From assembly GCA_016182485.1 (NCBI GenBank), contig JACPGH010000007.1, positions 27,656-91,655 on the forward strand: a DNA stretch of 64,000 nucleotides, written 5' to 3'. The translations under genes and the position numbers were made by a program. Below the pieces are notes generated by a model, which saw nothing but the letters and a program-made list of their open reading frames with translations, was not told the DNA's origin and searched no databases. Below, piece after piece: positions 191 through 47,191 of this stretch (the stretch's first letter is position 1; every line of letters starts with the position of its first letter). The DNA is from Candidatus Kaiserbacteria bacterium. GTDB lineage: Bacteria > Patescibacteriota > Minisyncoccia > Phycocordibacterales > Phycocordibacteraceae.

Positions 191-213
191 AAAGGACCAG
201 GCTAGGCGATCGC

Positions 214-285
214 ACTCTGGAACGCTGGAGGCTGGATTCTGGATGCTGGTTACCCAGTCTCTAGGAACCAGCTTCTAGCCTCCAA
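214..285 (+). repeat. 72-nt hairpin-forming repeat, copy 1 (ggaggctgg...ccagcttctagcctcc), located where the P3 hairpin of rnpB would be
   Basis: Near-identical direct repeat of 533-605. Contains an internal imperfect inverted repeat. Confidence 0.7.
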
Positions 286-532
286 GGTGAGGAAAGTCCG
301 AACACGGGCCGCCCTGAAAGGGCGCGCAGCAAGTAGCGGGTAACTCCCGCACACCGCGAGGTGAGAGGTGCGAACAGAGACGCTCATGAGCGAAAGCGAA
401 TGAGCGCCCTGCGAAGCTTGATGCGAAGCAGGGCGACTTGGAGTGTATAGTCCTTCTTCGCCAAGGCTACGAAGGACATTTGTCGAAGACTCCAAATGAA
501 ACGGCAAAATCCTTACTTCCGTGCAAGGCCGT

Positions 533-605
533 ACTCTGGAGCGCTGGAGGCTGGACTCTGGATGCTGGTTTACCCAGCCTCTAGAAACCAGCTTCTAGCC
601 TCCAG
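533..605 (+). repeat. 72-nt hairpin-forming repeat, copy 2, in the P15-P17 region of rnpB
   Basis: ~90% identical to 214-285 by direct inspection. Confidence 0.7.
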
Positions 606-855
606 TTTGTGCCGCTAGATCCCGAGCGCAAGCGAGGGACCAGATAAATGATCGCCGCCGATTTTGCCTGCCGCAGGCAGCTGCAGATTCGACAAGCTCA
701 CTGTGGCGAGCTTTGTCGAGCCACAAATCGAGCGTCCCGAGCAAAGTCGAGGGACTGCGACCCTTCGACAAGCTCAGGGTACTCGATTCTGCAACCACCT
801 TCGGTGGGCAGAATCGGTACAGAATTCGGCTTATCGGCCTGGTCCATAAAACTGC

Positions 856-11793: not shown

Positions 11794-11796
11794 CAA

Positions 11797-11890
11797 ATTT
11801 TCAATGCTCAATTTCGCAATTTTTAATCAATTTTCAAACATTGATACATTGGGCATTATTTGAAAATTGGAAATTGTAAATTGAAAATTA
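11797..11890. repeat. AT-rich imperfect-palindrome element, family 1 (arms caattttcaa / ttgaaaattg around a loop acattgatacattgg)
   Basis: The same arm/loop layout recurs in every spacer from 11797 to 18339. Confidence 0.75.
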
Positions 11891-11902
11891 TGTTAGACTA
11901 AA

Positions 11903-12889
11903 ATGATGGATTTCCTCGCTATCGGCGACACGACCGTAGACGAATTTATCCGGCTCAAAGAAGCGAAGATCTCTTGCGACGAGAACAGGGATCATTGCAC
12001 TATTACGTTCCCGTGGGGCGAGAAAATTCCCTACGAGTCTTCGGTGCTCCTCCCCGCCGTCGGCAATGCGGCGAATGCGGCCGTAGCGGCGGCGCGCCTC
12101 GGACTCTCTGCGGGCCTCGTGAGCAATGTAGGTAATGACCGTTTCGGCGAAGAGACGCTCGCGGTTTTCCAGCGGGAAGGCGTCGATGTCTCCCATACGC
12201 GCGTCAACGACGGCATCCCTACGAATCACCACTACGTCCTATATTACGATTCCGAGCGGACCATCCTTATCCGGCACGAGGCGTATCCGTACGCTCTGCC
12301 GGAGAATATGACCGCCCCGAAATGGATATACCTCTCCTCGCTCGGCGAAGGCGCGCATGCCTTCCATGACGAACTCGCTGCGTGGCTCGCGGACCACCCG
12401 GAAACCAAGCTCGCTTTCCAGCCGGGCACGTTCCAGATACAGATTGGGCGGGAACGATTGAGAAATTTATATGCGCAAGCGGCAGTCTTCGCGAGTAACA
12501 AGCAGGAGGCGGAAAACATCCTCGGGGTTGGGGACACCGACGTCAGGAGTCTCCTTGAGCAAATGCGGGCGCTGGGGCCGAAAATTGTTCTTATCACAAA
12601 TGGCGTCGCCGGCGCCTACGGCTTCGATGGCGAGAAAATGCTCAAAGTCCCGATGTACCCGGACCCCAAGCCGCCTTATGAGCGCACCGGCGCCGGCGAC
12701 GCCGCCACCGCAACCTTCGTAGCCGCGCTCGCGCTCGGCAAACCTCTGGAAGAAGCGCTTCGCTGGGGACCGATCAACTCGATGTCGGTCGTCCAATTCC
12801 TCGGCGCGCAAGAAGGCCTGCTCTCTCGCGACGCGCTCGAGAAACTGCTCGCCGACGCGCCCGAATCGTACGCAGTAACCACGCTCTAA
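11903..12889 (+). CDS. PfkB-family carbohydrate kinase (ribokinase-like)
   Basis: N-terminal GG motif region and C-terminal TGAGDA anion-hole motif. Confidence 0.75.
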   Translation: MMDFLAIGDTTVDEFIRLKEAKISCDENRDHCTITFPWGEKIPYESSVLLPAVGNAANAAVAAARLGLSAGLVSNVGNDRFGEETLAVFQREGVDVSHTRVNDGIPTNHHYVLYYDSERTILIRHEAYPYALPENMTAPKWIYLSSLGEGAHAFHDELAAWLADHPETKLAFQPGTFQIQIGRERLRNLYAQAAVFASNKQEAENILGVGDTDVRSLLEQMRALGPKIVLITNGVAGAYGFDGEKMLKVPMYPDPKPPYERTGAGDAATATFVAALALGKPLEEALRWGPINSMSVVQFLGAQEGLLSRDALEKLLADAPESYAVTTL

Positions 12890-12892
12890 TTT

Positions 12893-13010
12893 TCAATTAC
12901 CAATTTTCAATTTACATTGAATTTTCAAAGCTTCAATTTTCAAACATTAATACATTGGAAATTGGAACATTATTTGAAAATTGTAAATTGCAAAATTGAA
13001 AATTATTTGG
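12893..13010. repeat. Family-1 AT-rich palindromic element (loop caaacattaatacattgg)
   Basis: Arms caattttcaa ... ttgaaaattg. Inverse orientation of the copy at 16709-16802. Confidence 0.75.
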
Positions 13011-13151
13011 GCTGTTCGAGCCCGTACATCACCCGATTCCCGAAGGTTTCCGCGAGCGTAACATCTGTCGCCACGCGCACGATGAGCAGGGCCGCGCCGC
13101 CGCCAATGATCGTAATGAGCAATGCTCCGATATAAGAATTCACGCAGGCCC

Positions 13152-14165
13152 TCATGCTGCCAATACTATATCGCGTACGAGCGCTTTTGCCGCCTCGATA
13201 ATGTGGGTAACATCAAGCCCGTAGCGCGCCAACAGTTCCTGGGGCGTACCCGATTGGCCGAATTGATCTTGTATCCCGAGCCGTTTGATGGACACGACGT
13301 GTCCATCAGACAAGAATTCCGCGACGGCGCTCCCGAAGCCTCCGGCCGTTTGGTGTTCTTCTAGAGTAAGTACGCGGCCCGCGCTTTCCGCCGCTTCGAG
13401 TATCGCCCCGGTATCGAGGGGCTTCACGGTCGGCACATGGAGTACGACCGAATCGATTCCCTGTTCTTCGAGAGCGCGCGCGGCTTCGAGCGCGGCGTAG
13501 CTCAAGGAACCGGTCGAGAATATGGCGATTTCTGGTTTCTGGTTTCTGGTTTCTGGTTCCCAGAGTATAAGCGCCTTCCCGATCTCAAATGGCGTTTCGC
13601 GAGTGGTGAACACCGGAGTCGCCGCGCGTCCGAAACGTAAATATACAGGCTCTCCCAGGGCAGCCGCCGCAATGACTGCCTTGCGCGCCTCCTCGGCGTC
13701 CGCCGGAGCGATGACCGTCATCCCCGGCAGCATCCGCATCATGCCTATGTCCTCGAGCATCTGGTGCGTGGCGCCGTCGGCGCCGACCGATACGCCCGCA
13801 TGCATCCCGCACACGATGACCGGCATATTGTTGAGAGCAATCGTGGTGCGTATCTGCTCATAATTGCGCCCGGGATTAAACGCGGCATAGCTTGCGATGA
13901 AAGGAATTTTTCCCGCCGCCGCCATGCCCGCCGCCACAGTGGCCATATTCTGTTCCGCGACGCCCATCTCGATGAACCGGTCCGGGAAGGCTTTTTGAAA
14001 TTGTTCGGCGCGGGTGGATTCGGCCAAATCGGCGCAAAGCACTACGACGCGCGCATCCTTTTCTCCCGCCTCCACGCTTCCCGTTCCGAACCCGTCGCGC
14101 GTCGGCGCCGTCTCGATATCGTTCGAAAAAATTTTCTGCGAAAGCTTTGCGGAAAGATCCAACAT
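13152..14165 (-). CDS. Transketolase, C-terminal section (split transketolase subunit B)
   Basis: Pyrimidine-binding and C-terminal domains. Carries an in-frame (tggtttc)x3 microsatellite at 13533-13556. Confidence 0.85.
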   Translation of the reverse strand: MLDLSAKLSQKIFSNDIETAPTRDGFGTGSVEAGEKDARVVVLCADLAESTRAEQFQKAFPDRFIEMGVAEQNMATVAAGMAAAGKIPFIASYAAFNPGRNYEQIRTTIALNNMPVIVCGMHAGVSVGADGATHQMLEDIGMMRMLPGMTVIAPADAEEARKAVIAAAALGEPVYLRFGRAATPVFTTRETPFEIGKALILWEPETRNQKPEIAIFSTGSLSYAALEAARALEEQGIDSVVLHVPTVKPLDTGAILEAAESAGRVLTLEEHQTAGGFGSAVAEFLSDGHVVSIKRLGIQDQFGQSGTPQELLARYGLDVTHIIEAAKALVRDIVLAA

Positions 14166-14294
14166 AATTTTCGATTTACAATTTACAATTTACAAATAAG
14201 GACCAATTTCCAATTTTCAAACAAAGATTCCCGTTTGAGCATTGCACATTGAAAATTTCATTGGAAATTGCAAAATTGAAAATTGAAAATTCTT
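14166..14294. repeat. Family-1 AT-rich palindromic element
   Basis: Arms caatttacaattt... / ...ttgcaaaattgaaaattgaaaatt. Confidence 0.75.
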
Positions 14295-15209
14295 TCATGT
14301 TCTCTGTATTTGAGCTAAGAACCGCTCCCCTTCCTCCGCCGAAGGCGGCTTCCCATGCCACCTATAATCCCCTTCGATTTCCGGCACGCCCTTGCCGGCG
14401 GTCGTATGCGCGATGATTAGCGTCGGAGCGTCCGATACTGCCTTCGCTTCTTCAACCGCCCCGACAAATGCGTCCAAATCGTGCCCATCCACTTCGAGCA
14501 CGCGCCAGTTAAACGCGCGGTACTTCTCGGCGAGCGGTTCGAGCGGCATGACCTCCTCGGTATTGCCGTCGATTTGAATGTTGTTGCGATCCATGATCGC
14601 CGTGAGCCCGGCGAGACGGTGCTTCCCCGCGAACATGGCCGCCTCCCAAGTATTCCCCTCGTCCTGCTCGCCGTCGCTCATCACGCAGTAAATTCTAGGC
14701 GCTAGGCTATAGGCGCTAGGCTCTAGCTCTGATCCGTTTTTAAAATTGGAAATTGAAAATTGTCCGCCGGAGGCGGATCCGCCTTTGGCGGAAAAATTTT
14801 TAAGAGCCCACGCCATTCCCGCCGCCTGCGAGAGGCCCTCGCCAAGAGGCCCTGAGGTGGTTTCGAGACCTGTCAGCCGCGTTCTCTCGGGATGCCCTTG
14901 GAGCCGCGAGCCGAATTTCCGCAATGTGAGACATTCTTCGACCGGGAAATAGCCGGCATGAGCCAGAGTCGCGTACAAGACTGGGCAGATATGCCCGTTG
15001 CTGAGTACGAGCCTATCTCGTTCTTCCCAATCCGGCCGCGCAGGGTCGTGTTTCAAGATATGAAAATAAAAGGCGGCGAAGATGTCCGCCATGTCGAGCG
15101 GCCCCGCCGTGTGGCCGCTGCCCGCGGCGACAAGCATCCGGATCACAGTCTCGCGAATGGCCCGAGCCTTTCCCTCAAGCAGCCGAATCTCCTCATCAGT
15201 CAAAGCCAT
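14295..15209 (-). CDS. Transketolase, N-terminal section (TPP-binding subunit A); contains an in-frame ~25-aa repeat-derived insert
   Basis: GHxxxxxD and GDGE TPP motifs. An insertion (…KNFSAKGGSASGGQFSISNFKNGSELEPSAYSLAP…) is encoded by 14695-14775. Confidence 0.85.
   Translation of the reverse strand: MALTDEEIRLLEGKARAIRETVIRMLVAAGSGHTAGPLDMADIFAAFYFHILKHDPARPDWEERDRLVLSNGHICPVLYATLAHAGYFPVEECLTLRKFGSRLQGHPERTRLTGLETTSGPLGEGLSQAAGMAWALKNFSAKGGSASGGQFSISNFKNGSELEPSAYSLAPRIYCVMSDGEQDEGNTWEAAMFAGKHRLAGLTAIMDRNNIQIDGNTEEVMPLEPLAEKYRAFNWRVLEVDGHDLDAFVGAVEEAKAVSDAPTLIIAHTTAGKGVPEIEGDYRWHGKPPSAEEGERFLAQIQRT
14695..14775. repeat. Composite in-frame insertion inside the transketolase gene: ctaggcg/ctaggct tandem repeat plus a family-1 AT-rich motif (aaaattggaaattgaaaattg)
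   Basis: Direct sequence identity to the intergenic family-1 arms. Reading frame preserved. Confidence 0.7.
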
Positions 15210-15235
15210 GCTCTAAGTATACAGCATGAAACTAC

Positions 15236-15365
15236 CCTAATTTTTCAATTTACAATTTCCAATTTTCAAATAATTACCAATCTCCAATTTTCAAACAAAA
15301 TCCTTGTTTGGACATTGAATCATTGAAAATTGATTGAAAATTGCAAAACTAAACATTGAAAATTC
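15236..15365. repeat. Family-1 AT-rich palindromic element
   Basis: caatttacaatttccaattttcaa ... cattgaaaattgattgaaaattg. Confidence 0.75.
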
Positions 15366-16112
15366 TTAAACCCCGTAGGGATATTGGGCGATATACAACG
15401 CCTCGAACTCGGCGATGGCCTTTGCCGGATCTGCGGCTCGCAATATGCTCGAACCGACCACGAGATTCGAGACTCCGGCGGCAATAAGCCGCTTGGCATT
15501 ATGCAGGGAAACGCCGCCGTCAACCTGGATCGGGAGCCGCGGATATTTCTCGCGCAGGACGCGGATTTTCTCGAATACGCGCTCGTCGAAGGGCTGTCCT
15601 TGGCGGCCGATCCGCGCGATACCCATGCACTGCACGTACTGAACACAGCGGATACAGGGCTTGTCCTTCGTAGCTTCAGCGAAGAAGGGCTCGATGAGCG
15701 CAAGACTGCTCGCGAGATTAATTGCGAGACCGATCGAGAAGCCGCCGGCCTCTCCGAACCGTTCGGAGAGCGAGCCGAGAAGGCGCGGCAGGTCTATGGG
15801 GCTCTCGGCATGTATCGTGAGGCGGCTGGCGCCGAGAGCGAGCCATGCCGCCGCAGCCGCCTCCGCATCGATACACATGATATCGACTTCATACTCGACC
15901 GCGCCGAGCCGCGGCAACATGCCTTCCCAATTTTCAATTTCCAATTTCCAATTTTCAATGCTATACGGCCAGGAGGCAGGCGAGGCGAACTGCCCGTCTA
16001 CGACGTCGATCTGGATACGGTCAATCGAGGGAAGACTCGTGAGGAGTGCGAGTTTTTCTGCCAGCTCTTTTTTGGATGCGGGCAAAACGGCTGGAACGAC
16101 AAATGACATAGC
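15366..16112 (-). CDS. rpe: Ribulose-phosphate 3-epimerase
   Basis: IDVVDGQF…, HxMV-equivalent region, C-terminal VDGG(V)…GSSIL. Start set at MSFVVPAV; the upstream ORF extension only reads through the AT-rich element. Contains an in-frame repeat insert at 15927-15960 (IENWKLEIENW). Confidence 0.8.
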   Translation of the reverse strand, partial: AMSFVVPAVLPASKKELAEKLALLTSLPSIDRIQIDVVDGQFASPASWPYSIENWKLEIENWEGMLPRLGAVEYEVDIMCIDAEAAAAAWLALGASRLTIHAESPIDLPRLLGSLSERFGEAGGFSIGLAINLASSLALIEPFFAEATKDKPCIRCVQYVQCMGIARIGRQGQPFDERVFEKIRVLREKYPRLPIQVDGGVSLHNAKRLIAAGVSNLVVGSSILRAADPAKAIAEFEALYIAQYPYGV

Positions 16113-16216
16113 AAGAAAATTTTCAATTTTCAATTTTGCAATTTTCAAACGTTTGAAAATTAATACATTGAAAATTATTTGTAAATTGAAAATTGTAAAT
16201 TGTAAATTTGGTCATT
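16113..16216. repeat. Family-1 AT-rich palindromic element
   Basis: ttttcaattttcaattttgcaattttcaaacg ... ttgtaaattgaaaattgtaaattg. Confidence 0.75.
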
Positions 16217-16708
16217 CTAGAATTTCGCCAGCCTTCGCGCGTGGCGCGGCGAATCAGAGAACGGCGTGTTCAGGAAAATGCGGACCGCTTCGTCGGCTTC
16301 GCTCCCCGAAACGAACCGGGCGCCGATGCAGAGCACGTTCGCGTTATTGTGCCGGCGCGGGAGGCGCACGGCGTCATACCCGTCCTCCGAGCGGCCGCCT
16401 TCGATGTCGAGCGCTTCGGTCACCCGCATGGGGCCGTAGAAGACCGCGGCGCGGACGCCGGGCACTCGATTGGCGCACATCGCTTCGCCCTGCCCGCTGC
16501 CCCCGAGCGCGATGCCGCGCGCTTCGGGCTCGGCCGCCACGCGGCGGGCGAGCGCCCCGACGACGTCCGGATAATCGTCATCCGGCGCGAGCGAGTACGC
16601 GCCCAGGTCTTCGGCCTCGTGTCCGAGCGCCCGCACGTGCTCGAGGAGCGCGTTCTTCAGGTCAAACCCGGCGTGGTCAGAAGCAAAATAAATTTTCATA
16701 ATTTTCAA
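16217..16708 (-). CDS. rpiB: Ribose-5-phosphate isomerase B (RpiB/LacAB family)
   Basis: MKIYFASDHAGF… and the catalytic Cys region (GSGQGEAMCANR). Confidence 0.85.
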   Translation of the reverse strand: MKIMKIYFASDHAGFDLKNALLEHVRALGHEAEDLGAYSLAPDDDYPDVVGALARRVAAEPEARGIALGGSGQGEAMCANRVPGVRAAVFYGPMRVTEALDIEGGRSEDGYDAVRLPRRHNNANVLCIGARFVSGSEADEAVRIFLNTPFSDSPRHARRLAKF

Positions 16709-16802
16709 TTTTGCAATTTACAATTTTCAAATTATGTCCCAATTTCCAATGTATTAATGTTTGAAAATTTATTGTAAATTGCAAATTGATAATTGAGAAT
16801 TG
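16709..16802. repeat. Family-1 AT-rich palindromic element, inverse orientation
   Basis: Loop ccaatgtattaatgtttg is the reverse complement of the loop in the 12893-13010 copy. Confidence 0.75.
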
Positions 16803-17852
16803 TCACTTGGCCGTGCCGGCCGCTAGGACGTGCCGGACAAGTGACTCCGTATACCCCATCTCGTTGTCGTACCAAGCGAGCACCTTGACGAGATTGCCGT
16901 CCACGACCCGGGTCATGCCGAGGTCAGCGATCGAGGCGCACGGCTCTCCCACGATATCGCTTGAAACCAGCTCCTCATCGGTGGTCATGAAGAGGCCCTC
17001 CCAACGCGAGTCAGCCGCCGCCTTCCGCAAAATGTCATTGACTTCCTCGGCGGATGTCGGCCGCTTCGAAACGAAGGTGATATCCGCGATAGAGCCGGCT
17101 GCCACCGGCACGCGCAGGCTTATCCCGTCGAATTTCCCGGCGAGCGACGGGTACGCCTGCGTCACGGCGACGGCCGCGCCGGTCGAAGTCGGCACGATAT
17201 TAAGCGCGGCCGCCCTCCCTTCCTTCTTGTCTTTTCGCGAAGGCCCGTCGACGATAGACTGACTCGCTGTGTAAGCATGCGCCGTCGAGAGTATCGCCTT
17301 TTCGATACCAAGCGCCTCGTCGAGTATCGCTATGACCGGACTCGCGGCATTCGTCGTGCACGACGCATTCGAACTTATCTGACATGTCGAGAGCTTCTCC
17401 TCATTCACCCCCATCAGCACCGTGGCTCCTAGCGACTGGCTGCTAGTGGCTAGTGGTTGGTTTTTGACCGGTGCAGTGATGACAACACGCTTCGCTCCGG
17501 CCGCGAGATGCGCGCTCGCCTTCTCATAATCGGTGAACAATCCCGTAGACTCGACCGCTACATCGATACCGAGCTCCCCCCAAGGCAAATTCGCCGGCTC
17601 CTTTTCCGAGAAGAACTTCACTTCCTTCCCGTCAATCAGCAAAGCTGATTGCCCCGAGCTTGTCGAGGGGCTGATCCCGACCGAAAATGGCGCGCGCCCA
17701 TATACGGTGTCGTACTTCAATAAATAGGTTAGGTTTTCAAGCGAGCCGAGATCATTCACGGCGACCACTTCGATTCCGCGGCCCTGACTTCTCCTCGCAA
17801 ACGCGCGCCCTATTCGTCCGAATCCGTTAATGGCGACTCTAATGGGTTTCAT
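16803..17852 (-). CDS. gap: Glyceraldehyde-3-phosphate dehydrogenase (type I)
   Basis: NGFGRIGR Rossmann motif and catalytic SCTTN. Start set at MKPIRVAING; the upstream ORF extension is read-through of the repeat. In-frame repeat-derived inserts at ~17423-17460 and ~17640-17680. Confidence 0.85.
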   Translation of the reverse strand: MKPIRVAINGFGRIGRAFARRSQGRGIEVVAVNDLGSLENLTYLLKYDTVYGRAPFSVGISPSTSSGQSALLIDGKEVKFFSEKEPANLPWGELGIDVAVESTGLFTDYEKASAHLAAGAKRVVITAPVKNQPLATSSQSLGATVLMGVNEEKLSTCQISSNASCTTNAASPVIAILDEALGIEKAILSTAHAYTASQSIVDGPSRKDKKEGRAAALNIVPTSTGAAVAVTQAYPSLAGKFDGISLRVPVAAGSIADITFVSKRPTSAEEVNDILRKAAADSRWEGLFMTTDEELVSSDIVGEPCASIADLGMTRVVDGNLVKVLAWYDNEMGYTESLVRHVLAAGTAK

Positions 17853-17933
17853 GATGATAGTGTAGCATGGCCAAAAATGAGAATTTTCAATTTTGCAATT
17901 TTCAATTTTCAATAAATTTTCAAGGCTCAATTT
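17853..17933. repeat. Family-1 element, left-arm type (caattttcaa repeats), abutting the 3' end of the 4HB gene
   Basis: gagaattttcaattttgcaattttcaattttcaataaattttcaaggctcaattttcaaac. Confidence 0.7.
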
Positions 17934-18293
17934 TCAAACGGATCGCGCCGAGGCAGCAATTTTTTGGAAAATTAATGTTAATTCTTGGCTCTCTTTCTGT
18001 AATCTCCCTAAAGCATCGTCTTCTATCGTCCCACAGGACACCAGCATCCTAAGCCAGTGCTTCGTTTCTTGTATCTCTTTTTTGCATATGTAAATCTTGT
18101 TGACGAAATCTCTTTTTGAGCTGGCGCCGTTCGCTTCCATATAATTGGCTCCTACGCTCGTACCAGAGCGTAAAAGTTGGTTAACAATTGGATCTGTTAT
18201 ATGACTACGATGGATTTTCTTACAAAGCGATATAATTTCTTCACCAAACCGAGCCGTTCTTTCTTCTAGATCGTATTTCTTCGTTTGATCCAT
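17934..18293 (-). CDS. Four-helix-bundle protein (PF05635/TIGR02436, '23S rRNA intervening-sequence protein' family)
   Basis: 119 aa. Motifs LRSGTSVGANYMEA and RDFVNKIYICKKEIQETKHWL match the 4HB family. Sits exactly between a left arm and a right arm of a family-1 element. Confidence 0.75.
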   Translation of the reverse strand: MDQTKKYDLEERTARFGEEIISLCKKIHRSHITDPIVNQLLRSGTSVGANYMEANGASSKRDFVNKIYICKKEIQETKHWLRMLVSCGTIEDDALGRLQKESQELTLIFQKIAASARSV

Positions 18294-18339
18294 TGAAAAT
18301 TGGTCCTTATTTGAAAATTGGAAATTGTAAATTGAAAAA
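18294..18339. repeat. Family-1 element, right-arm type (ttgaaaattg repeats), upstream of the 4HB gene
   Basis: ccattgaaaattggtccttatttgaaaattggaaattgtaaattgaaaaatt. Confidence 0.7.
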
Positions 18340-21300
18340 TTATTGTGGCGTTGTCGAAGTTTCGGTAGCCGCGGAGAGGGGCTCGATTACTGTCACTAGC
18401 CTCGAAACCGAACCCGTGTTCCCCGCCGCGTCCGTCGCGCTGTAGGTGAGCGTGTATGAGCCGGCTGTTGCGGTATCTGCGGAACCCGAGGTCGCGATTT
18501 TTGCCGTTAGGTCTCCGTCCGTTTCATCTGTAGCGGTCGCCCCCGGGTCTGTGAAGGTCTGACCTTCACTGATCTGCATCGCCGCCTCTCCGTTCAAGGT
18601 CACGATCGGAGGTTGAGAGTCTGAATCCGGACTTATGACTTCCGACTCTGGAGTAGCGCTCGACTCTTGACTCGTGACTTGTGACTCTTGACTTGTTGTA
18701 CCGGCTACTACGCTCCCGTTGCCTACGATCACCGACCGCGTCGCCATGATGCTCCCATTCGGCCCGAGTACGCGATAGGTGATTATGTAGGTCGTCTCGC
18801 TTGAGGTATCAATAGTCCCCGGGCCGACTTCCGACTCCACGCCGTTGATATAAGTCGTTACGGGCGCACCCCCTGCATCGATTCCCGGATCAACGAAGTT
18901 CCCCCCGACCTCGATCAGATAAGGATTATCCCCGAGCACCGTAATCCATTGGGTGCTCGTGTTTGAATTGGAAATTGAAAATTGAGAATTGGAAATTTGT
19001 GACTCTGGCGTGCTTGTCGCCATCTGCCCTTCCGTCTGGATCAAGAAGTAATCGAAGGAGGTGTCTCCCGCCTGCGGGCTCTCGAGCACGAGGCGGAAGG
19101 AGCCGTCCTTCTTCTCCGCGATATACCAGGAGCCGGTCGTCGAGGCGGTGAAGGTGACGAATATCTTGGTCGAGGGCTTCACGTAGGCGTTCTGCACCTC
19201 CGCGACCGTGTTGCCGGCGATTATTTTCACCGTCCCGGCCGAGCTCGTACCGGCGGAATTCGTCGCCGCGACGAACTGGTCGGCCACGAGCGTGCCGAAC
19301 TGCGCGATGCCCTTCGCGATATAGGCGCCAAAGGCGTTAAAGGCGCTCGCGAGCGAGGTCGTCGAGAAGGAGACCGGCGAGCCGGAGGCAGAGGAGACCG
19401 CGCCGCTCTCGAGCGCCGCGAGGCGCGCCTCGAGCGAGGTGAGCCGCACCTCGGCGCGATCGACCTTCTCGGCGAGCGTCTGCACGCCCGCGAGGGTCAG
19501 GGTCGCGAGCTTGTAGAGATCCACGCCGTTGCCGTCTATCGAGAGGATCTCGGGCGCCGTCTCCCGCGCATCCTCGGCAATGAGGCCGAGCCGGAGCGGG
19601 TTGCTCCCGGCCTCTGCCGCGTAGCGATACGTCGCGACCTTGAGCCCGCGAACCTTGCCCAGCACGGCCTCGGTCGAGCTCGCGCTCATATAATTGATGT
19701 CGGTCTTGAGCGCGCGCGTCGAAGTGTTCACGAAGCTCGTCGCGCTCACTTCCTGCGCCGTGAGGCGATTGATGTAGCCCTCGTTCGTCACCGCGAGATT
19801 CGATGTCCACACGGAGGTCGAGGCGACAAAAGAATCCGCCGCTACGTTGCCATATACTGTGAACAAGCCGGCAGCTTGGTGCGGAAACGATCCTGTCACT
19901 TCGATTTCTGAGGGTTCGATTCCCTCTGCCGGCTTTTGCAGGTTTTCCACAATGCTTGCCGGGGTGCTTGACGCGTAAACCCAGTTTGCTATAATAGGTG
20001 CGGTGACAGGCTCGTTTCTCGCAGAAATCGAACCCTCGTAAGAGAACCCGAAGTAGCCGCCCGTAAGGGCGGTTATTTCGTTTTCCAGCGTCCCTACCCT
20101 CCCCGCGAGCCGCGTCGAAGTGGTGCTCAGCTCCTGTATCGCCAGTATCATCGGCGCGGCGAGGCCGTCGTAATTGATGGAGAGCGTGCCGTCGGGCGTG
20201 AGCGAGGTGGGGGCGGAAGTCTGTACGAGATCCGGGAACACCTCTCGCACCTGCTGGGCGATGAGGCCGAATTGCTTCTGGCTCGAGCGCTCCGCCGCCG
20301 GATCCCAGTAGAAAGAAACGGGCCGGAGCGCGTCGATCGCAGACAGCCCGCTCGCTGTCGCGAGCGGGCTTATATCCTGCTTCAGCCGCTCGTCAGACGC
20401 GGAGCAGGCGAGGAGGCCGTTGCCGTTAGACGTGAAGCCGGTGCAGTTCTTGTAGCCGTCGAAGGTGACGTTCGCCGTCTCCCCGCCGACTTCAAGCAGG
20501 GTCGCGGGCGTCGTAGTCCCGAGGCCTATCGCGCTCGCGCTCATGTAGATCGGCTGGACGCCGCTCCCCACGAGGCGCGAGGTGATGATGAGATTGCCGG
20601 TTGAGGCGTCGATGCCGAATTCGCCGATGTAGTTGGGGTCGGAGCCGTTGTAGATGGTCATGGCGGAAGCGCTCCCCGCGGTCGTCACGATCGAGAAGCG
20701 CTCGCTTTGTCCGCCGGGGCTTGCCGTCCCAATCCCGACATCACCGGAGTCGTCGATCACGAACGGCGTCGGGTCGCCTGCCTGGTCGTTCACGGCGAAG
20801 GAGAGCGCGGCGCTCGTATTCTCGACCGCGAACTTCGCGAACGGCGTGCTCGAGGCGATGCCGACCCGCTCGTTCGTGGCGACATAGAGCGAGGAAGTGG
20901 CGGTGAGGGTCGTACCGGTCCCCGCATAGTATGGGAACTGCCCGGCCGTGCCGGAACCGACCGTCCCTGTCCCGCTCCCGCCTCCCACGCAGACTCCGTT
21001 AATCGCAAAACATCCTGTTCGTATATCAATGCCGGAGCCGAACGTGGACGTGGCGGTCGCCGAAATGTTAATCGTATTGGCTCCCGTATCTCCAAGCGAG
21101 AGCAGCGTCCCCGGACTCGTCGTCCCGATGCCGACGTTGCCTTCTATTATCATCCCGTTAGTGGGAGCCGCCGCACCGTAATTTGTTCCCACGGAAACCC
21201 CTCCAGCAATACTCAATTTACTTCCCGGAGTAGTGGTGCCAATACCAACCCTCTGGTTGTACCCTCCAGAGACACCGCCAATAAAGAACGGCGTGTAGCT

Positions 21301-37398: not shown

Positions 37399-37839
37399 GT
37401 CGGATAACCGAATTAACTAAATAATAGCTCGTCATTTCGGCAAAAAAATACCTACAAAAAAATTGTGTGGATAATGCGCTGACCTGCGCTTCAGATGAAC
37501 CGCTGAGACGGGGCCATTTTCGATCGAAACGTACGCATTTCTCACCCATTTTTTCAAAATCGTCCCGCAAAACCAGAAATCGGACGCTCCAAAGCGGAAT
37601 AGGCCACGCAAAGCCGGCCCAAGCGCATGTCAAAGCTCACGGAAACCTGTGTAAATTAGCTTTGAGAGCGGCATATTCGCGGTCCAGAGACGTCCATAAT
37701 TGATATTCTGAAATCACCCCAGACTTATGCGCGACATATACCGCTTATTTTTTAGATATTTCGGGCAAGCGACCTGGCTCACAACCGAATAGCAGTGATC
37801 GATGAATGGCGCTATTTACGCATTGTAAAAATAAATTCA

Positions 37840-37960
37840 GCCACTGCGCACAATATGAGATTGCATATATTGTGCGCACACATGCTTATCTCATAGAATA
37901 GATCTCCCTCAAGGAGATGAAATGCACAATATATATAGTATGTGACCTATACTTTCCCTT
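37840..37960. promoter_or_regulatory. AT-rich upstream region of the giant gene with operator-like inverted repeats (GCGCACAATAT / ATATTGTGCGC half-sites x3; hairpin atctccctcaaggagat)
   Basis: gcgcacaatatgagattgcatatattgtgcgc palindrome at 37845-37878, a further half-site gcacaatatatat at 37923-37935, and TATA-like hexamers. Confidence 0.4.
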
Positions 37961-38021
37961 TTTGGCACATTTTTCACTTTTATTTGTCAGGCAGTTTTAG
38001 ACGAGACAAGAAAGCATTGTA

Positions 38022-38795: not shown

Positions 38796-38847
38796 GCCAG
38801 CAGTATAGCCATATCTCGGCTGGGATGGAAGGGAGATGTGTACAAAC

Positions 38848-40347
38848 CTATCCTATTCGTTCCCGTAGCAACTTTTGCAGTTCTTGAGGATTGCCCGCTC
38901 CGCGGCTCTCCCGCATAGCCTGCCCGACCAGGTACTGAAGGGAGGCCTGTTTGCCGCCTCTGTACTCCTCAACCGCCTTCTGCTCGCGGGCAATTACGGA
39001 ATCAACTATGGCGCCGAGCGCAGTCGCATCGTGCACTTGGATAAGATCGTGCTCCTTCGCGATAATTTCCGGATCTTCATTACCGCCGCCTTCTACTAAA
39101 AGCGCGAGCGTATCCTTCGCGCCGCGGGAAGAGAGCGACTGGGCTTTCACCAGCTTGATGAGTTTTGCGAATGCATTTGGATCCAGTGATTCGTAATCTT
39201 CATTCCCTTTCTTTGCGTATATACCGGCAAGATCTGAAACTATGTAATTTGCCGCCAGACGAACATTATCCGAATCATTTGAAAGCGCGGCTGCGACGGC
39301 GTCGAAGAAGGCCGCCCGCTCGAGAGTGCCTGAGACATATGCGATATCGTTCTCCTTAAGCGCATAGTCTCTCGCGTACCGCTCGCGCCGGAGCCAGGGC
39401 AGCTCGGGCAGCGACGCGCGTATCGCTTCAGTCCCGAATTCCGGAATCTCAGAAATAAGCAGCTTGGGCAGATCGGGTTCCGGAAAATACCTATAGTCGG
39501 CGCTCCCCTCTTTAAACCGCTGGTGGAAGGTCTCCTGTTTTTCTTCGTTCCAGCCGCGCGTCTCCTGCACCACCTTCCCTCCTTCTTGGAGCAGTTTCGT
39601 CTGCCGCTTGATCTCAAAATCAATCGCCCGCTCCACTGACCTAAACGAATTCAGGTTTTTTATTTCGACCTTTGTTCCCAGTTTTGAATTTTGGTCATTG
39701 GTGCTTGTTTGGTTCTTGAGATTTGGTTCTTGGGATTTAGCCACGCTGACGTTCGCCTCGATGCGCATCTCGCCTTTTTCCAGATTCGCTTCGCTGGCGC
39801 CGAGAGTGCGCAAGAGAAGCTGCAGTTCGCGCGCGAAGCGGCCGGCAGTCGAAGCATCGGGGATGACCGGCTCCGTTACTAGCTCCATGAGCGGGATGCC
39901 CGCGCGATTGAAATCGACGAGACTCCTTCCTGCAGTCCGTTCGCTGCGCTCAGGATCTCCGGCTTCGCCTGCGACGTGAATAGAGCGGGCGGTATCTTCT
40001 TCGAGATGCACGCGCGTCAATTCCACTCCAACAAGAGAGCCGCCGACAACAAGCGGGTTGGCATACTGACTGATCTGATACCCCTTCGGAATATCCGGGT
40101 AAAAATAGGACTTGCGATCGAATTCGCTGTAGTCCGCGAGCGCGCCGCCGAGCGCGGTGCCGACACGCAGGATATGCCGCACCGCCTCCCGATTCGCTAC
40201 CGGCAGAGTCCCGGGGTGAGCGAGACAAATGGGACATATATTGACGTTCGGCCGCGTCTCGTCCGGATCGTTCGCGCAGGAGCAGAACATCTTGGTCCGG
40301 GTCTTGAGCTCGGCGTGGATCTCGAGACCGATGGTAGGACGATACAT
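38848..40347 (-). CDS. gatB: Asp-tRNA(Asn)/Glu-tRNA(Gln) amidotransferase subunit B
   Basis: MYRPTIGLEIHAELKTRTKMFCSC…, GatB/YqeY C-terminal domain. Start set at the conserved N-terminus; the upstream extension is repeat read-through. Contains an in-frame family-2 repeat insert at 39655-39765. Confidence 0.85.
   Translation of the reverse strand: MYRPTIGLEIHAELKTRTKMFCSCANDPDETRPNVNICPICLAHPGTLPVANREAVRHILRVGTALGGALADYSEFDRKSYFYPDIPKGYQISQYANPLVVGGSLVGVELTRVHLEEDTARSIHVAGEAGDPERSERTAGRSLVDFNRAGIPLMELVTEPVIPDASTAGRFARELQLLLRTLGASEANLEKGEMRIEANVSVAKSQEPNLKNQTSTNDQNSKLGTKVEIKNLNSFRSVERAIDFEIKRQTKLLQEGGKVVQETRGWNEEKQETFHQRFKEGSADYRYFPEPDLPKLLISEIPEFGTEAIRASLPELPWLRRERYARDYALKENDIAYVSGTLERAAFFDAVAAALSNDSDNVRLAANYIVSDLAGIYAKKGNEDYESLDPNAFAKLIKLVKAQSLSSRGAKDTLALLVEGGGNEDPEIIAKEHDLIQVHDATALGAIVDSVIAREQKAVEEYRGGKQASLQYLVGQAMRESRGAGNPQELQKLLRERIG
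39655..39765. repeat. Family-2 AT-rich repeat (ttggtcattggtgcttgtttggttcttgagatttggttcttgggattt) inserted in frame in gatB
   Basis: Identical motifs to the intergenic copies at 40375-40535 and 41932-41995. Encodes …KSQEPNLKNQTSTNDQNSKLGTKVEIKNL…. Confidence 0.7.
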
Positions 40348-40374
40348 ATGCGAAAGATACTTCATAAAGCACCA

Positions 40375-40535
40375 AATCTCAAATCGCAAGATCCAAGATG
40401 AGTGCCCAAGAACCAACCTCTAAGAACCAAACAAAAACCAATGTCCAAAGGACCAATGTTTTATTTTTGAAGATTGGTGCTTGAAATTTGTTTGGTACTT
40501 GGGGTTTGGTGCTTGGAATTTAGTATTTTTGAGAG
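40375..40535. repeat. Family-2 AT-rich imperfect-palindrome element (arms caagaacca… / …ttggtgcttgg), complete copy between gatB and obg
   Basis: Left arm ccaagaaccaacctctaagaaccaaacaaaaaccaatg and right arm cattggtc…ttggtgcttgaaatttgtttggtacttggggtttggtgcttgg are roughly reverse-complementary. Confidence 0.7.
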
Positions 40536-41483: not shown

Positions 41484-41571
41484 TGCACCACGATACGCTA
41501 AAAAGAACCAAGAACCAAATCGCAAGAACCAAACAAACCACGCTAAAAAGAACCAAGGACCAAACAAACAC
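41484..41571. repeat. Family-2 element, left-arm type (aagaaccaa periodic repeats)
   Basis: aaaaagaaccaagaaccaaatcgcaagaaccaaacaaaccacgctaaaaagaaccaaggaccaaacaaaca. Confidence 0.65.
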
Positions 41572-41931
41572 TCAGGATACCTTATTGATGATTGCAGTAA
41601 GTATGAGCATGATTTCCCGCGCCTCGGATCTCAAGCGATGGCATTCCGCTATTCCATTTTCATTTGACTCTAGCAAGGAAAGCCAAAAGGCACTTTCCTT
41701 TGCTTCTTTTCGAGATATCCGCAATCTCATAACGAAGTCCTTCTTCCCGAGCGCCTCATTTCCTTCAATATAATTTGCCCCAATGGCTCCGGATGAGCGA
41801 ACTAATTGCTTAGCATCTTCATTGTTTTGTATGGTTTTCGGTAATCTGGAAACAAGCTTTCGTACGTCTTGAGCAAAAATCAGCGTCCTTTCTTCAAGAT
41901 TAAAACGTTTGCTCTTTTGAACATTGGTCAT
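41572..41931 (-). CDS. Four-helix-bundle protein (second paralogue; PF05635/TIGR02436 family)
   Basis: 119 aa. SSGAIGANYIEGNEA…KDFVMRLRISRKEAKESAFWL. Sits between the left and right arms of a family-2 element. Confidence 0.75.
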   Translation of the reverse strand: MTNVQKSKRFNLEERTLIFAQDVRKLVSRLPKTIQNNEDAKQLVRSSGAIGANYIEGNEALGKKDFVMRLRISRKEAKESAFWLSLLESNENGIAECHRLRSEAREIMLILTAIINKVS

Positions 41932-44474
41932 TGAGATTTGTTTGGTTCTTGCGATTTGTGATTTGGTACTTCAATAATACTCCATCCGTCGGCGAGGAAC
42001 GGTTCGGCTTTTTTATATTTTATCGTCTTCGTTTCGTCGCCTTTTTTGATGGTAACAAAATCGTTCCGGCCGTAGGATTGCTTGTTTACGATCGGCTGAG
42101 ACCCGGAGTCTTCCGAGCCGGCGGCTATGAGTTGCGCCCGGATCTTCGCTTCTTCCGCCCTGATGCGCGCCTCGTCCCGCGGCAGGATGTGCGGAACCAT
42201 CTCGGCGATGGTGGCACGGATATTTTCTTCGAGCTGACGGAAGCGCGCGAGCCCTTCGCGCCGATACTCGATGAGAGGATCCCGCTGGCCATACGCGCGC
42301 AAGGACACCGAGCGGCGCAGATAATCCATCGCCTCTAGATGCTCGAGCCAGAAAGTGTCGATTACCTGCAGAAGGAGTCTCCGGAGGGTCGCTCCGAACG
42401 CCTCGCCTAGCTCGGCCTTCCTGGCTTCGAATGTCTCGAGGGTCTGCGCAGGCGCGCCCGCGAGCATCTCCCGGACGATCTCTTCCACTTCGGCGTTACT
42501 CCCGAGAAGCGCGGTCCGGCGGCGAGCATAGATCGCGAGCCGCTGGGTATTCATCACGTCGTCGTAGGCGAGCACCTGCTTGCGCGCGTCGAAGTTGAAG
42601 CCCTCGATGCGCTCCTGCGCCGTCTCGAGCGACCGCGTTATCATCGCGCTCTCTATCGGCTCGTCCTCGGGAATGCCGAAGCGGCCCATCACCTTCTTCA
42701 GGGTCTCAGACGCGAACACGCGCATCAGCTTGTCTTCCAGAGATACGTAAAATCTCGTTTCGCCGGGATCGCCTTGGCGGCCGGAGCGGCCGCGCAGCTG
42801 ATTGTCGATGCGGCGCGCGTCATGCCGCTCCGTGCCGATGACCACCAACCCTCCCTTTAAGAGAACGGAGGCGCGCTCGTCCGCAGTGGCGCGCGCGCCG
42901 CCGAGCTTGATGTCGACGCCTCGGCCGGCGAGGTTGGTCGCCACCGTCACCCTCCCCTCCTTCCCCGCCTCCGCAATGATCTCGCCTTCGCGTTCGTGAT
43001 TCTTAGCGTTCAGCAACTCGTGCGGCACTCCCGCCTCGGCGAGATACCCGCTCACCAGCTCGTTGTCCTCGATCGATACGGTGCCGACGAGGATCGGCTG
43101 GCCTTTCTCATGCCGTTCCTTCACGGCTTTCGCCACCGCGCGGTATTTCCCGGCCGCCGTCTGGAATATGAGGTCGTCGTGATCCTTGCGCGCGACCGGC
43201 TTGTTAGTCGGGATGGCTACGACCTCGAGCCCGTAGACTGTATAAAATTCTTCCTCGGAAGAGAGGGCCGTGCCCGTCATGCCCGCGAGCCGCGCATACA
43301 TACGGAACAGATTTTGGAACGTCACGGTCGCGTACGTCCGCGTTTCTTCTTTCACTGCGGCGCCTTCTTTCGCCTCGATCGCTTGATGCAGGCCCTCCGA
43401 CCAGCGGCGGCCGGGCTGGAGCCTGCCGGTAAACTCGTCGACGATGACTATCTCGCCGCCCTGTACCACATATTCCTTATCCTTATGGAAAAGCGCCTTG
43501 GCGCGCACGGCCGTCTCAAGATGGTGCGCGTACTTCACCCCGCCCTCGGTATATAAGTTCTCGAGGCCGAGCGCCGCTTCGGCTTTTTTCATTCCCGCGT
43601 CCGTCACTTGGATCGCCTTCTGCTTCTCGTCCACCGTGTAATCCTCTCCCTCCCGCATGTGCTCGACGATGCCGGCGAACCGCTCGTAGAGCATCTGCGA
43701 ATCTCCCGCGGGCCCCGAGATGATAAGCGGAGTGCGCGCTTCGTCGATCAAGATCGAGTCTACCTCGTCGATGATCGCGTAATGGAAGCCGCTCTGCCGC
43801 TGGACTATCTGCGGCATTTCATACGCGGTATTGTCGCGCAGGTAATCGAATCCCAATTCGTTGTTCGTCACGTAGGTGATGTCCGCGGCGTACGCCTCCT
43901 GCTTGGACACCGGCCGCAGATAATCGTAAAAGACGAGATACGCCCCGGCTACATCGCGCGCCTCGTCCTCCTGCTTCTCCGTATGCGATGCGTCATATCG
44001 AAAGGCGCCGGAACTCGTCACCACGCCCACCGAAAGGCCGAGATAATCGTAGATCTGTCCCATCCAGGCCGCATCGCGCCGCGCGAGATAGTCGTTCACC
44101 GTGATGATGTGCACGCCTTTGCCGGAGAGCGCATGGAACGTGGCCGGTAGAGTCGCGACCAGCGTCTTCCCTTCTCCGGTGCGCATCTCGGCGATCTTCC
44201 CCTGCGCGAGCGCGAGCCCTCCCGCGAGCTGGACATCGAAATGGAACTGCCCGAGGGTACGGCGCGCCGCTTCGCGCACGAGAGCAAATACAAGCGGCAA
44301 GTCCTCCTCCCGAGCGGCTTCGCCCTTGAGCGCCGCGAGCCTCCCGGAAAGCGCCTCTTTCGGCAGTCCCGTAAGCTCGCCCTCGAGCGCATTCACCCTC
44401 TCGATGGCCGGCGCCGCCGCTTTGAGAAATGCGGCGGATTGATCCTTAGAGAATAAGCGCGAAAGCCCTAACAT
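41928..44474 (-). CDS. secA: Preprotein translocase ATPase SecA
   Basis: MLGLSRLFSKDQSAAFLKAAAPAIERVNALE… N-terminus, DEAD-like motor domains, GTERHDARRIDNQLRGRSGRQGDPG. Start set at the conserved Met; the upstream 100-codon ORF extension is not supported. Confidence 0.85.
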   Translation of the reverse strand: MLGLSRLFSKDQSAAFLKAAAPAIERVNALEGELTGLPKEALSGRLAALKGEAAREEDLPLVFALVREAARRTLGQFHFDVQLAGGLALAQGKIAEMRTGEGKTLVATLPATFHALSGKGVHIITVNDYLARRDAAWMGQIYDYLGLSVGVVTSSGAFRYDASHTEKQEDEARDVAGAYLVFYDYLRPVSKQEAYAADITYVTNNELGFDYLRDNTAYEMPQIVQRQSGFHYAIIDEVDSILIDEARTPLIISGPAGDSQMLYERFAGIVEHMREGEDYTVDEKQKAIQVTDAGMKKAEAALGLENLYTEGGVKYAHHLETAVRAKALFHKDKEYVVQGGEIVIVDEFTGRLQPGRRWSEGLHQAIEAKEGAAVKEETRTYATVTFQNLFRMYARLAGMTGTALSSEEEFYTVYGLEVVAIPTNKPVARKDHDDLIFQTAAGKYRAVAKAVKERHEKGQPILVGTVSIEDNELVSGYLAEAGVPHELLNAKNHEREGEIIAEAGKEGRVTVATNLAGRGVDIKLGGARATADERASVLLKGGLVVIGTERHDARRIDNQLRGRSGRQGDPGETRFYVSLEDKLMRVFASETLKKVMGRFGIPEDEPIESAMITRSLETAQERIEGFNFDARKQVLAYDDVMNTQRLAIYARRRTALLGSNAEVEEIVREMLAGAPAQTLETFEARKAELGEAFGATLRRLLLQVIDTFWLEHLEAMDYLRRSVSLRAYGQRDPLIEYRREGLARFRQLEENIRATIAEMVPHILPRDEARIRAEEAKIRAQLIAAGSEDSGSQPIVNKQSYGRNDFVTIKKGDETKTIKYKKAEPFLADGWSIIEVPNHKSQEPNKSQ
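41932..41995. repeat. Family-2 element, right-arm type (ttggttctt repeats)
   Basis: cattggtcattgagatttgtttggttcttgcgatttgtgatttggtacttc. Confidence 0.65.
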
Positions 44475-44600
44475 TGGGCCATCATACCCCGTATGACTAC
44501 TTTTCGCGATATTGCATATTGGTAAAAGTACGTACAGCCAGCGCGTGGAGGCATACATAGAAAACAGGCGCGGCATCGGCGAGTTGTCATACGGGGCATA

Positions 44601-44636
44601 ACAGAAAATCGCGTCCTCCGGGACGCGATTTTCTGT
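44601..44636 (-). promoter_or_regulatory. Perfect 16-bp stem hairpin (acagaaaatcgcgtcc-tccg-ggacgcgattttctgt) in the secA leader
   Basis: Lies ~125 nt upstream of the secA start and directly downstream of a 15-codon Lys-rich mini-ORF (44651-44698). Confidence 0.35.
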
Positions 44637-44936
44637 ATCGAGGCTGATACTATTTGCGCTTCTTCGATGCCTTTTTCTTTGCCTTCTTCTTTGCCATGGT
44701 GGTTGCAATTTAGAATAACGGCTGATATGTCGACCCGTCTGCGCATTCGCCAGCTGGCGAAAAATTTTCCGCAAACGTTTCTACTCACTAGTATCGCGCA
44801 TTAAAAATATTTTTTGGGTTAATTTTTGCGCGACCTGTGGATAAACTCGCGTCAAAAAATTTCTCCGCAAAAAAATTTTCTCTAAAAGTTTTGAAAATCT
44901 TCTTGTTTCTCCCGCTTGCCCAGTAGGAAATGCCTT

Positions 44937-47168: not shown

Positions 47169-47191
47169 CGTGTAAGGTATCCTTATATTGT

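Follow-up and report, generated by a model that had tools for sequence, protein, structure and literature searches.

In Leptospira and Coxiella, intervening sequences (IVSs) in the 23S rRNA can bear an open reading frame (ORF) and are excised by RNase III, and they are the source of the Pfam family name 23S_rRNA_IVP. Other small repeats are known from protein-coding and intergenic DNA. Rickettsia palindromic elements (RPEs) are small palindromic repeats that lie between genes and, unusually often, in frame within unrelated housekeeping genes, where they are apparently compatible with the protein fold (reviewed in PMC10969869). MITEs (miniature transposable elements with inverted repeats, e.g. 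Correia elements), repetitive extragenic palindromes (REPs) and REP doublets forming hairpins (REPINs) are intergenic, can have outward-facing promoters and sites for RNase III, and may lengthen ORFs or join them (PMC10969869; see also PMC3116915). Heptanucleotide repeats occur with few copies per array and many arrays per genome, mostly between genes, and one orientation is translatable whereas the other contains stops (PMC4679880). The tandem repeats of Borgs are recently formed and add low-complexity or disordered segments to proteins (PMC9879509). Here we analysed a stretch of 64,000 nucleotides from Candidatus Kaiserbacteria (the window), in which a first-pass annotation had reported in-frame repeat insertions in rpe and gap and repeat read-through at ORF ends. 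The sequences and peptides it quoted are all present at their positions. With a probability of roughly 0.7, we propose that the flagged segments are fragments of small selfish IVS-like or MITE-like repeat elements that pervade this genome.

The window belongs to a metagenome-assembled genome of the Candidate Phyla Radiation (CPR; Parcubacteria/Paceibacteria). Its Rpe is 100% identical to the NCBI protein HYV30_04190, encoded on a contig of 123 kb, and the next best Rpe among 5.8 billion proteins reaches ~60%. The genes of the region of interest are all on the minus strand, as are the features described within them: tktC (13152-14165), tktN (14295-15209), rpe (15366-16109), rpiB (16217-16702) and gap (16803-17852), followed upstream of gap by a 119-aa gene (17934-18293) and by the gene of a 6352-aa surface protein (18340-37398), hereafter the giant gene. 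At 38.8-44.8 kb, a further group comprises gatB, obg, a second 119-aa gene and secA.

Both 119-aa genes sit in complete copies of an element. The family-A element (17882..18341, minus strand; ~470 bp to ~0.5 kb) consists of inverted heptamer arms at 17882-17931 and 18292-18341, 72% complementary over 50 nt, around the gene at 17934-18293, whose start and stop codons fall in the arm junctions. This gene encodes a four-helix-bundle protein of family PF05635, "23S rRNA IVS protein" (E 2.8e-18, 66.5 bits against a curated cut-off of 33.8). The family-B element (41490..41975, minus strand) has arms at 41490-41570 and 41925-41975 around a PF05635 gene at 41572-41931 (47.3 bits against the same cut-off), and the same locus and arms occur in the Kaiserbacterium L214 in the order secA-PF05635-obg. 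We take the complete element to be, presumably, a hairpin of ~0.5 kb with inverted heptamer arms around a PF05635 gene. The first-pass annotation had recognised repeat-derived in-frame pieces and had missed both the 7-base arrays and the PF05635 gene of the complete form.

The resemblance to IVSs lies in the PF05635 ORF of ~120 aa enclosed in long-stem inverted repeats, in the existence of ORF-less versions, and in insertion into helices of a structured RNA, which is here the RNase P RNA. The IVS protein and its position within stem-forming inverted repeats are both found, but the location in a 23S rRNA helix is not: the 23S rRNA gene is outside the window, and both gene-bearing copies lie between protein genes (giant gene/gap and secA/obg). 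The stems also differ in being built of 7-base repeats, and fragments of the elements occur inside protein genes.

From 11.8 to 18.4 kb, an AT-rich imperfect hairpin of 100-135 nt is found in each intergenic spacer, with an (AATTTNC)n left arm and a (GNAAATT)n right arm. Six of the family-A hairpins, to which no strand is assigned, are without an ORF: E1 (11796..11889; folding z-score -4.9), E2 (12885..13009; -5.2), E3 (14165..14292; -3.3), E4 (15240..15365; -4.8), E5 (16117..16211, upstream of rpe, with an inverted repeat that folds) and E6 (16690..16803, between gap and rpiB). The z-scores range from -3.3 to -5.2, and 0 of 200 shuffles fold as well, so that the hairpin potential of these spacers is clear. 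All six align with the arms of the gene-carrying element, at 85-92% with the 5' arm through its CAATG start and with the 3' arm beginning at the stop-containing CCGTTTGA; the matches to the 5' and 3' arms are 47/52 and 55/64 for E3, including the start and stop junctions, and 47/51 and 56/69 for E4. Moreover, E2 and E6, in opposite orientation, are nearly identical over ~70 nt including the non-periodic core, so they are dispersed copies of a single element and not microsatellites of separate origin. Judging from these alignments, E1-E6 are internal-deletion derivatives of the gene-carrying family-A element, as MITEs are of their parents. Loss of the PF05635 gene would then yield the hairpins of 100-150 nt in intergenic spacers and in the helices of RNase P RNA. 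They share with MITEs that a short, non-autonomous form with inverted repeats has arisen from a longer parent by internal loss of its gene; unlike MITEs and REPINs, the parent encodes PF05635, and no recognisable transposase or RAYT (REP-associated tyrosine transposase) is found among the 20 window ORFs scanned.

Several of the hairpins are missing in the closest genomes. In L001 the rpiB-rpe junction is 4 nt long, and in L202 gap and rpiB overlap, so that E6 has no counterpart at that junction. L202 is the closest relative found (gap 82%, rpiB 74.5% and the PF05635 protein 80% identical); it carries a family-A hairpin at the rpe-rpiB junction and none between gap and rpiB. As a side observation, transketolase is encoded in the window by two genes for its N- and C-terminal parts (13152-15209), and a family-A hairpin occupies the 130-nt spacer between them.

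The arms of all these elements are built on one period. Tandem Repeats Finder (TRF) returned ~30 period-7 arrays in the window. A sliding test at a threshold of at least 17 matches in 21 gave 14-19 segments at lag 7, depending on how overlaps were merged, and none at lags 5, 6 and 8-11 or in shuffles. At the looser threshold of at least 15 of 21, 25 arrays were found at lag 7 against 0.6 in codon-triplet shuffles, and the other periods in a scan of lags 5-11 gave 0-6. Seven is the sole enriched tandem period in the window. Perfect 8-bp hairpins are likewise in excess (57 against 5.4 in shuffles). Three arm families can be told apart, namely A (TTGNAAA), B (TTTGGTNCTTGNGA) and C (CTGGNNN/CTAGNNN). 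An array in obg (40609-40636) was set aside as probable chance, as its length is unchanged relative to L214 and E. coli and it barely passes the loose threshold. The excess of tandem 7-base units is shared with the short tandemly repeated repetitive (STRR) sequences of cyanobacteria, the TAACTGA repeats of Beggiatoaceae and long simple sequence repeats (SSRs). However, those are described as direct repeats located mainly upstream of genes, whereas here the arrays form inverted pairs that make hairpins, bracket one gene family, and are found both within the reading frames of essential genes and in the RNase P RNA; the unit sequences (TTGNAAA, TTTGGTNCTTGNGA, CTGGNNN) and the CPR host also differ from those of STRRs.

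Pieces of the arms were then compared with genes, and in-gene arm matches were judged against the maximum score of 29 in 2000 random coding windows. The solo family-A arm in rpe (15927..15959; ATTGRAA x 4.7, TRF period 7, 88% matches) encodes SIENWKLEIENWE; the array itself codes for SIENWKLEIENWEG and the longer peptide across the segment is IENWKLEIENWE. At 27 of 28 positions it agrees with the 5' arm of the complete PF05635 element (local alignment score 51). This copy is read in the orientation that can produce TGA, and direct reading showed that the two units with a would-be in-frame TGA read TGG instead. Alignment with 26 Kaiserbacteria orthologues ruled out a simple insertion here: most of them have a segment of identical length, SAPTELNDMLAQSE in place of SIENWKLEIENWEG, so that the array replaces the native beta2-alpha2 segment and rpe does not carry the clean insertion first proposed. 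L202 Rpe is 5 aa shorter at the site. In an AlphaFold model (TIM barrel, pTM 0.80), the array segment lies between beta2 and beta3 with pLDDT <50 and a short helix, and on this model it is the surface beta2-alpha2 segment.

The rpe site has been occupied by more than one repeat. L081, with a 57% identical Rpe, is one of ~30 other orthologues and the one that carries a different heptamer array, (ACTGGAR)n, at this position. In other Kaiserbacteria we also observed a recurrent module, PSTKSDLVLGKP, at the array site in P0016, P0024, P0026, P0104 and L001, and ATKGTP or FAKATQGTPY in P0009, P0011, P0066 and P0109, doubled in P0066; several repeat families appear to share this site as a hotspot. 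A second small insert in rpe (FAEATKD..., 15663..15683) is a GC-rich palindrome that adds ~7-10 residues relative to all orthologues, and a relative of it lies at 457-477 within the RNase P RNA, with 0.00 expected by chance.

In gap, both sites reported earlier as in-frame insertions are exactly +6 codons relative to L202. Site 2 (17429..17456) is a heptamer array (CTAGNNN/CTGGNNN; lag-7 identity 0.62, lag-14 identity 0.56) within the insert PLATSS; it codes for NQPLATSSQSLG, giving the peptide QPLATSSQSLG, and the +6 codons hold against L001 as well. Site 1 (17633..17675; GISPSTSSGQSA, peptide GISPSTSSGQ) is a small-palindrome insert made of a perfect 8-bp hairpin at 17633-17651, which bears out the palindrome-rich segment noted earlier, and a CCTCGACAAGCTCGGGG core. 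The core TCGACAAGCTC has three exact copies in the window, the other two being within the RNase P RNA gene. Site 1 was rejected as a heptamer array (lag-7 identity only 0.27). Its hairpin was first assumed to be chance, and this was withdrawn because the window holds a 10-fold excess of such hairpins. An ATCAGC...ATCAGC pair flanks the insert, but its 26-nt period misfits the 18-nt net insertion. L001 has its own (GCAGTAG)n array at site 1; together with the L081 array in rpe, this indicates that tolerant sites have evidently been hit or remodelled repeatedly. Against Protein Data Bank (PDB) structures only, the inserts come out at 6 and 9 aa for GAPDH and ~9 aa for Rpe, which is an overstatement because the CPR orthologues as a group have longer segments there.

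The transketolase genes carry two further pieces. In tktN, a composite insert of ~28 aa (14695..14800) combines a GC palindrome, a family-A arm at 14742-14762 (23/25 matches, score 40) and a CTAGGCG array at 14695-14726. It is present in 0 of 14 aligned orthologues, L001 being left out for a scaffold gap (Ns) at this place. In tktC, a perfect (CCAGAAA) x 4.3 array (13529..13558; TRF 100% matches) adds 4 aa relative to L001; one unit gained or lost there would frameshift an essential gene. The giant gene holds a solo family-A arm at 18964..18999 (period 7, encoding SQFSISNSN; 28/32 to the 3' arm, score 42), which is the repeat previously placed at 18961-19000, and a second heptamer array (GACTCKT; 18657..18693; TRF period 7, 4.6 copies) encoding QESQVTSQES. 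The in-gene pieces are thus homologous to the element arms, and the repeat origin assumed by the first-pass annotation is beyond chance (25 against 0.6 arrays; arm matches of 27/28 and 28/32).

These arrays could also be locally generated microsatellites, i.e., native 7-base motifs expanded on the spot by slipped-strand replication and not imported. Heptanucleotide repeats, the commonest long simple repeats of prokaryotes, are reported as the most abundant class, with polymerase slippage proposed as their origin (literature summarised in PMC4679880), the units vary by site (gap has CTAGTGG, the giant gene GACTCKT, and L001 has GCAGTAG at gap site 1), and the perfect tktC array can be derived from the flanking GAACCAGAAATC. 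We consider this explanation unlikely for the set as a whole, since in rpe, tktN and the giant gene an AT-rich array is set in a GC-rich gene and its arm match is far above background, the family-B pieces found in gatB, obg and secA correspond to arms of the second element, and gap site 1 and the second rpe insert are non-periodic and have copies elsewhere. Borg repeats resemble the present case in that nucleotide repeats add new low-complexity protein segments, but their in-ORF units are divisible by three, perfect and local, whereas those described here are 7-base, imperfect and common to dispersed hairpins.

Family-B pieces were found within gatB and at the ends of obg and secA. The gatB array (TTTGGTNCTTGNGA; 39698..39738, minus strand; TRF period 14) is in frame and adds 13 aa, corresponding to a 13-residue gap in 3al0_B in the PDB alignment. 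An ORF-less family-B hairpin occupies the obg/gatB spacer (40372..40520, no strand assigned; fold z -3.5), and its arm at 40461-40520 codes for the last ~19 aa of Obg. The Obg tail, NSKHQTPSTKQISSTNLQK, is +17 aa relative to L214 (16-17 aa shorter there), where Obg ends ...KTFHLL*, the downstream hairpin is absent and the obg-gatB junction is 16 nt. The SecA tail, VPNHKSQEPNKSQ, is +10 aa relative to L214, and the last ~13 aa are encoded by an arm of the complete family-B element; the protein ends ...DGWTIIESTK* in L214 and ...DGWSIIEVPNHKSQEPNKSQ* in the window. Both tails differ between the window and L214 by the position of the first stop in the arm. By ordinary decoding of the sequence, the C-terminal tails of Obg and SecA are real and encoded by the elements: a hairpin landing on a stop codon would let the ORF continue into the arm as far as the next stop.

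Of the read-through reported for ORF ends, the part at these two C-termini holds, and the part at the N-termini (rpe, gap, gatB, obg and secA) is an artefact of ORF calling. The extended ORFs exist as described, but they are a property of stop-free sequence and not evidence of translation, and they arise because ORFs were started at the first possible codon after a stop. Orthologues all begin at the downstream Met, the NCBI start of Rpe is MSFVV, and independent gene calls give 848 aa for SecA, 340 aa for Obg and 505 aa for GatB.

It is very improbable that the segments are ordinary lineage-specific loops or disordered tails with chance low complexity, contingency repeats, or assembly artefacts. 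The sites are length-variable across the clade anyway, 7-base slippage changes the frame as in classic contingency loci, and the source is a metagenome-assembled genome. However, the periodicity far exceeds chance and the pieces are homologous to dispersed elements. Five contigs, assembled independently and each from a separate sequencing run, match the window at 100% identity over 36718-47931, a span with the gatB array, both C-terminal tails and the second PF05635 element; this cross-check covers the family-B region, and the family-A region is on record in one assembly. No copy-number variation occurs across these five assemblies in the family-B region, and the in-gene arrays are imperfect except in tktC; imperfect arrays in essential single-copy genes argue against phase variation.

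Taken across genes, what persists is either a solo arm (21-41 nt) or a small palindrome (overall 18-41 nt), apart from the tktN composite of ~100 nt, and the net length effect runs from 0 aa in rpe up to +28 aa in tktN. The inserts are lineage-specific: most orthologues are without any array at these sites, and alignment confirms +6 codons at the gap sites, ~+28 aa in tktN and +13 aa in GatB but no clean insertion in rpe. Likewise, the earlier view that essential genes tolerate the repeats as loop or linker insertions fits the sites, which are length-variable among orthologues, but not rpe, where the change is mostly a same-length replacement of a native helix. None of the three family-A in-gene copies has a partner arm within the window, against 7 of 7 intergenic copies. 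Filtering for frame and for stop codons is apparent in the retained pieces, which would survive in genes only if they keep the frame, contain no in-frame stop, and fall in a length-variable surface segment or at the 3' end. The elements may spread as DNA, their arrays growing, shrinking and becoming homogenised through slippage by 7 bases and through gene conversion between copies, and the in-gene pieces would be tolerated passengers rather than functional parts. By analogy with IVSs and Correia elements, the intergenic hairpins might be processed like rRNA intervening sequences, perhaps by RNase III cleavage.

Compared by description, RPEs are similar in having in-frame, tolerated pieces in housekeeping genes together with intergenic copies. 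They differ in that an RPE is a whole element of ~150 bp with a conserved peptide, whereas the genes here hold solo arms or fragments of 18-100 nt, and no whole palindrome of ~100-150 bp was found in frame in a gene. The arms of 7-base arrays, the PF05635 gene in the complete element and the CPR host are further differences. They would not count as RPEs, having no whole palindrome in genes, nor as classical IVSs, lying outside 23S rRNA, nor as transposase-derived MITEs; their behaviour resembles that of RPEs, their architecture that of ORF-bearing IVSs and MITEs, and their repeat unit that of prokaryotic heptanucleotide repeats.

The in-gene copies might instead be functional cis-elements and regulatory, acting as binding sites for the PF05635 protein, as outward promoters, as RNase III sites or as alternative pairing partners of the upstream hairpin. 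At 11500-19200, we counted 17 sigma-70-like matches (TTGAAA-N17/18-GAAAAT) against 4.0 +/- 2.0, a ~4-fold excess, nearly all within hairpin arms and pointing at the start of the downstream gene. The in-gene array of rpe shows 92% complementarity to a hairpin arm lying 225 nt upstream and that of tktN to one lying 483 nt upstream, the L081 orthologue also keeps a periodic array at the rpe site, and in the Gemmataceae and Parcubacteria copies described below the arms are conserved better than the coding sequence. Against this, the promoter scan is a weak consensus match, most orthologues do without an array at these sites, and rpe, tktN and the giant gene show no consistent orientation or topology of their copies with respect to the hairpins nearby. 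We regard a functional role as quite unlikely, and retain the interpretation of the pieces as fragments of selfish elements.

The elements extend well beyond this genome. In the Kaiser-, Giovannoni-, Nomura- and Liptonbacteria, homologues of the first PF05635 protein (hb1) share 64-81% identity, so the PF05635 proteins are conserved more across lineages than housekeeping genes (next best Rpe ~60%). In 5 of 5 contexts of hb1 homologues, fetched regardless of repeats, TTGNAAA arrays reach the ATG and resume past the stop. Inverted heptamer arms around a PF05635 gene were seen in L202, L204, L206, L207, L214, L217 and L218, and inverted 7-base-repeat arms also accompany such genes in L081, where they are (TAGGGAA)n, and L143; each protein subgroup has its own heptamer. 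Homologues of the second protein (hb2) reach ~60% identity in Bacteroidota, Planctomycetes and Desulfobulbaceae, and one PF05635 copy from Gemmataceae and one from Parcubacteria, with 66% protein identity, share (CGAAATY)n arms.

A metagenome scan for (TTGNAAA)4 gave at least 120 stretches, from which 80 loci with 88 arrays were read. PF05635 was present in 7 of these 80 array-selected loci (8 genes in 0.5 Mb) and in none of 0.87 Mb of gap-selected loci. Of the 88 arrays, 40 lie deep within ORFs of at least 150 aa, 29 of these 40 in the stop-free orientation. They include in-frame arrays in UvrC, ArgRS, ValRS, PcrA/UvrD and a NifS-like enzyme, with peptides such as ISNFQFPI, LEIGNWKLEI and LQIANCKLQI. 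One metagenome ValRS (L152; 65% G+C) has an in-frame LQIANCKLQIAN array together with low-complexity inserts of the GEGWGEG- and PSPQPSPQGRGG-type, so in-frame repeat fragments are not confined to CPR genomes.

From this distribution a wider and more tentative idea follows, which we hold to be possible although doubtful: the very widespread PF05635 proteins may be the signature gene, and possibly a mobility or maintenance factor, of cross-phylum hairpin elements of ~0.5 kb with subfamily-specific heptamers, the classical rRNA IVS being one landing site. The proposed pairings would be TTGNAAA with hb1-type proteins, TTTGGTNCTTGNGA with hb2-type proteins, CGAAATY with those of Gemmataceae and a Parcubacterium, and TAGGGAA with that of L081. 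Intergenic spacers, structured RNA genes and protein genes would be invaded both by such elements and by the derivatives that have lost the ORF. In the literature searched, we found no description of heptamer-armed PF05635 elements, in-frame arrays or their peptides.

Several results weigh against the interpretation as dispersed selfish fragments. In the metagenome loci the contrast between solo in-gene and paired intergenic arrays is weak, with a partner in 4/36 against 6/21, which is not significant. Most orthologues give no net insertion in rpe, and with the different array of L081 at the same place this is better explained by repeated targeting or by maintenance over long times than by a single neutral hit; the perfect array in tktC has the look of local origin and not of import. 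No transposase, RAYT, reverse transcriptase or diversity-generating retroelement (DGR) context was found among 20 Pfam-scanned window ORFs, and no clear, consistent target-site duplications were found at the element ends, so that the insertion mechanism is not evident. Strain-level presence/absence polymorphism was not found either; the species is a database singleton and the independent assemblies are identical.

The repeats also reach a structured RNA. Rfam at gathering thresholds gave tRNA only, and the RNase P RNA gene (194..849, plus strand) surfaced at relaxed thresholds (RF00010, E 9.4e-20, 66 bits, under the gathering score of 100). It is of bacterial class A and contains two near-identical ORF-less family-C heptamer hairpins of ~72 nt, at P3 (219-290) and in the P15-17 region (541-607), as well as a long 3' block of small palindromes with copies in gap and rpe. 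CPR RNase P RNAs are known to fall below thresholds and to have greatly extended helices (PMC8172020), and our result suggests hairpin insertions as a cause.

GAPDH, Rpe, transketolase, GatB, Obg, SecA and the RNase P RNA of a minimal-genome CPR bacterium would thus carry pieces of selfish repeats. This affects annotation, through false N-terminal extensions and an RNase P RNA under the Rfam thresholds, as well as protein alignment and structure prediction in CPR bacteria and estimates of how proteins gain surface segments. The large PF05635 (IVS protein/Avd-like) family gains a testable genomic context of gene, inverted heptamer arms and MITE-like derivatives, a context that connects the intervening sequences of rRNA with heptanucleotide repeats and with in-frame elements of the RPE kind.

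A few minor observations concern gene order and the giant gene. Relative to the window (15366-18341), the gap-rpiB-rpe block of L202 (2501-5280) is inverted with respect to tktN, the giant gene and the PF05635 gene; family-A arms edge the inverted block, pointing to recombination between copies of the element. In the giant gene, 35569-35671 is a perfect 51-nt tandem duplication (PTSPKPATKATKGTASS twice), and the palindrome GTTAGAAATCAGATTTCTAAC occurs in two copies (35730 and 36727) read as VRNLISNG. Repeats of the ATCCGCGGAT-type (37086-37147 and 38472-38491) give ISADLNQRKSA-like peptides at the N-terminus of the giant protein and in the neighbouring 257-aa protein. Finally, the palindrome GTGAAGGTCTGACCTTCAC is present in frame in the giant gene as SEGQTFT (18551) and in four intergenic copies (910, 955, 1718 and 1763) downstream of the RNase P RNA gene, at 910-1785.

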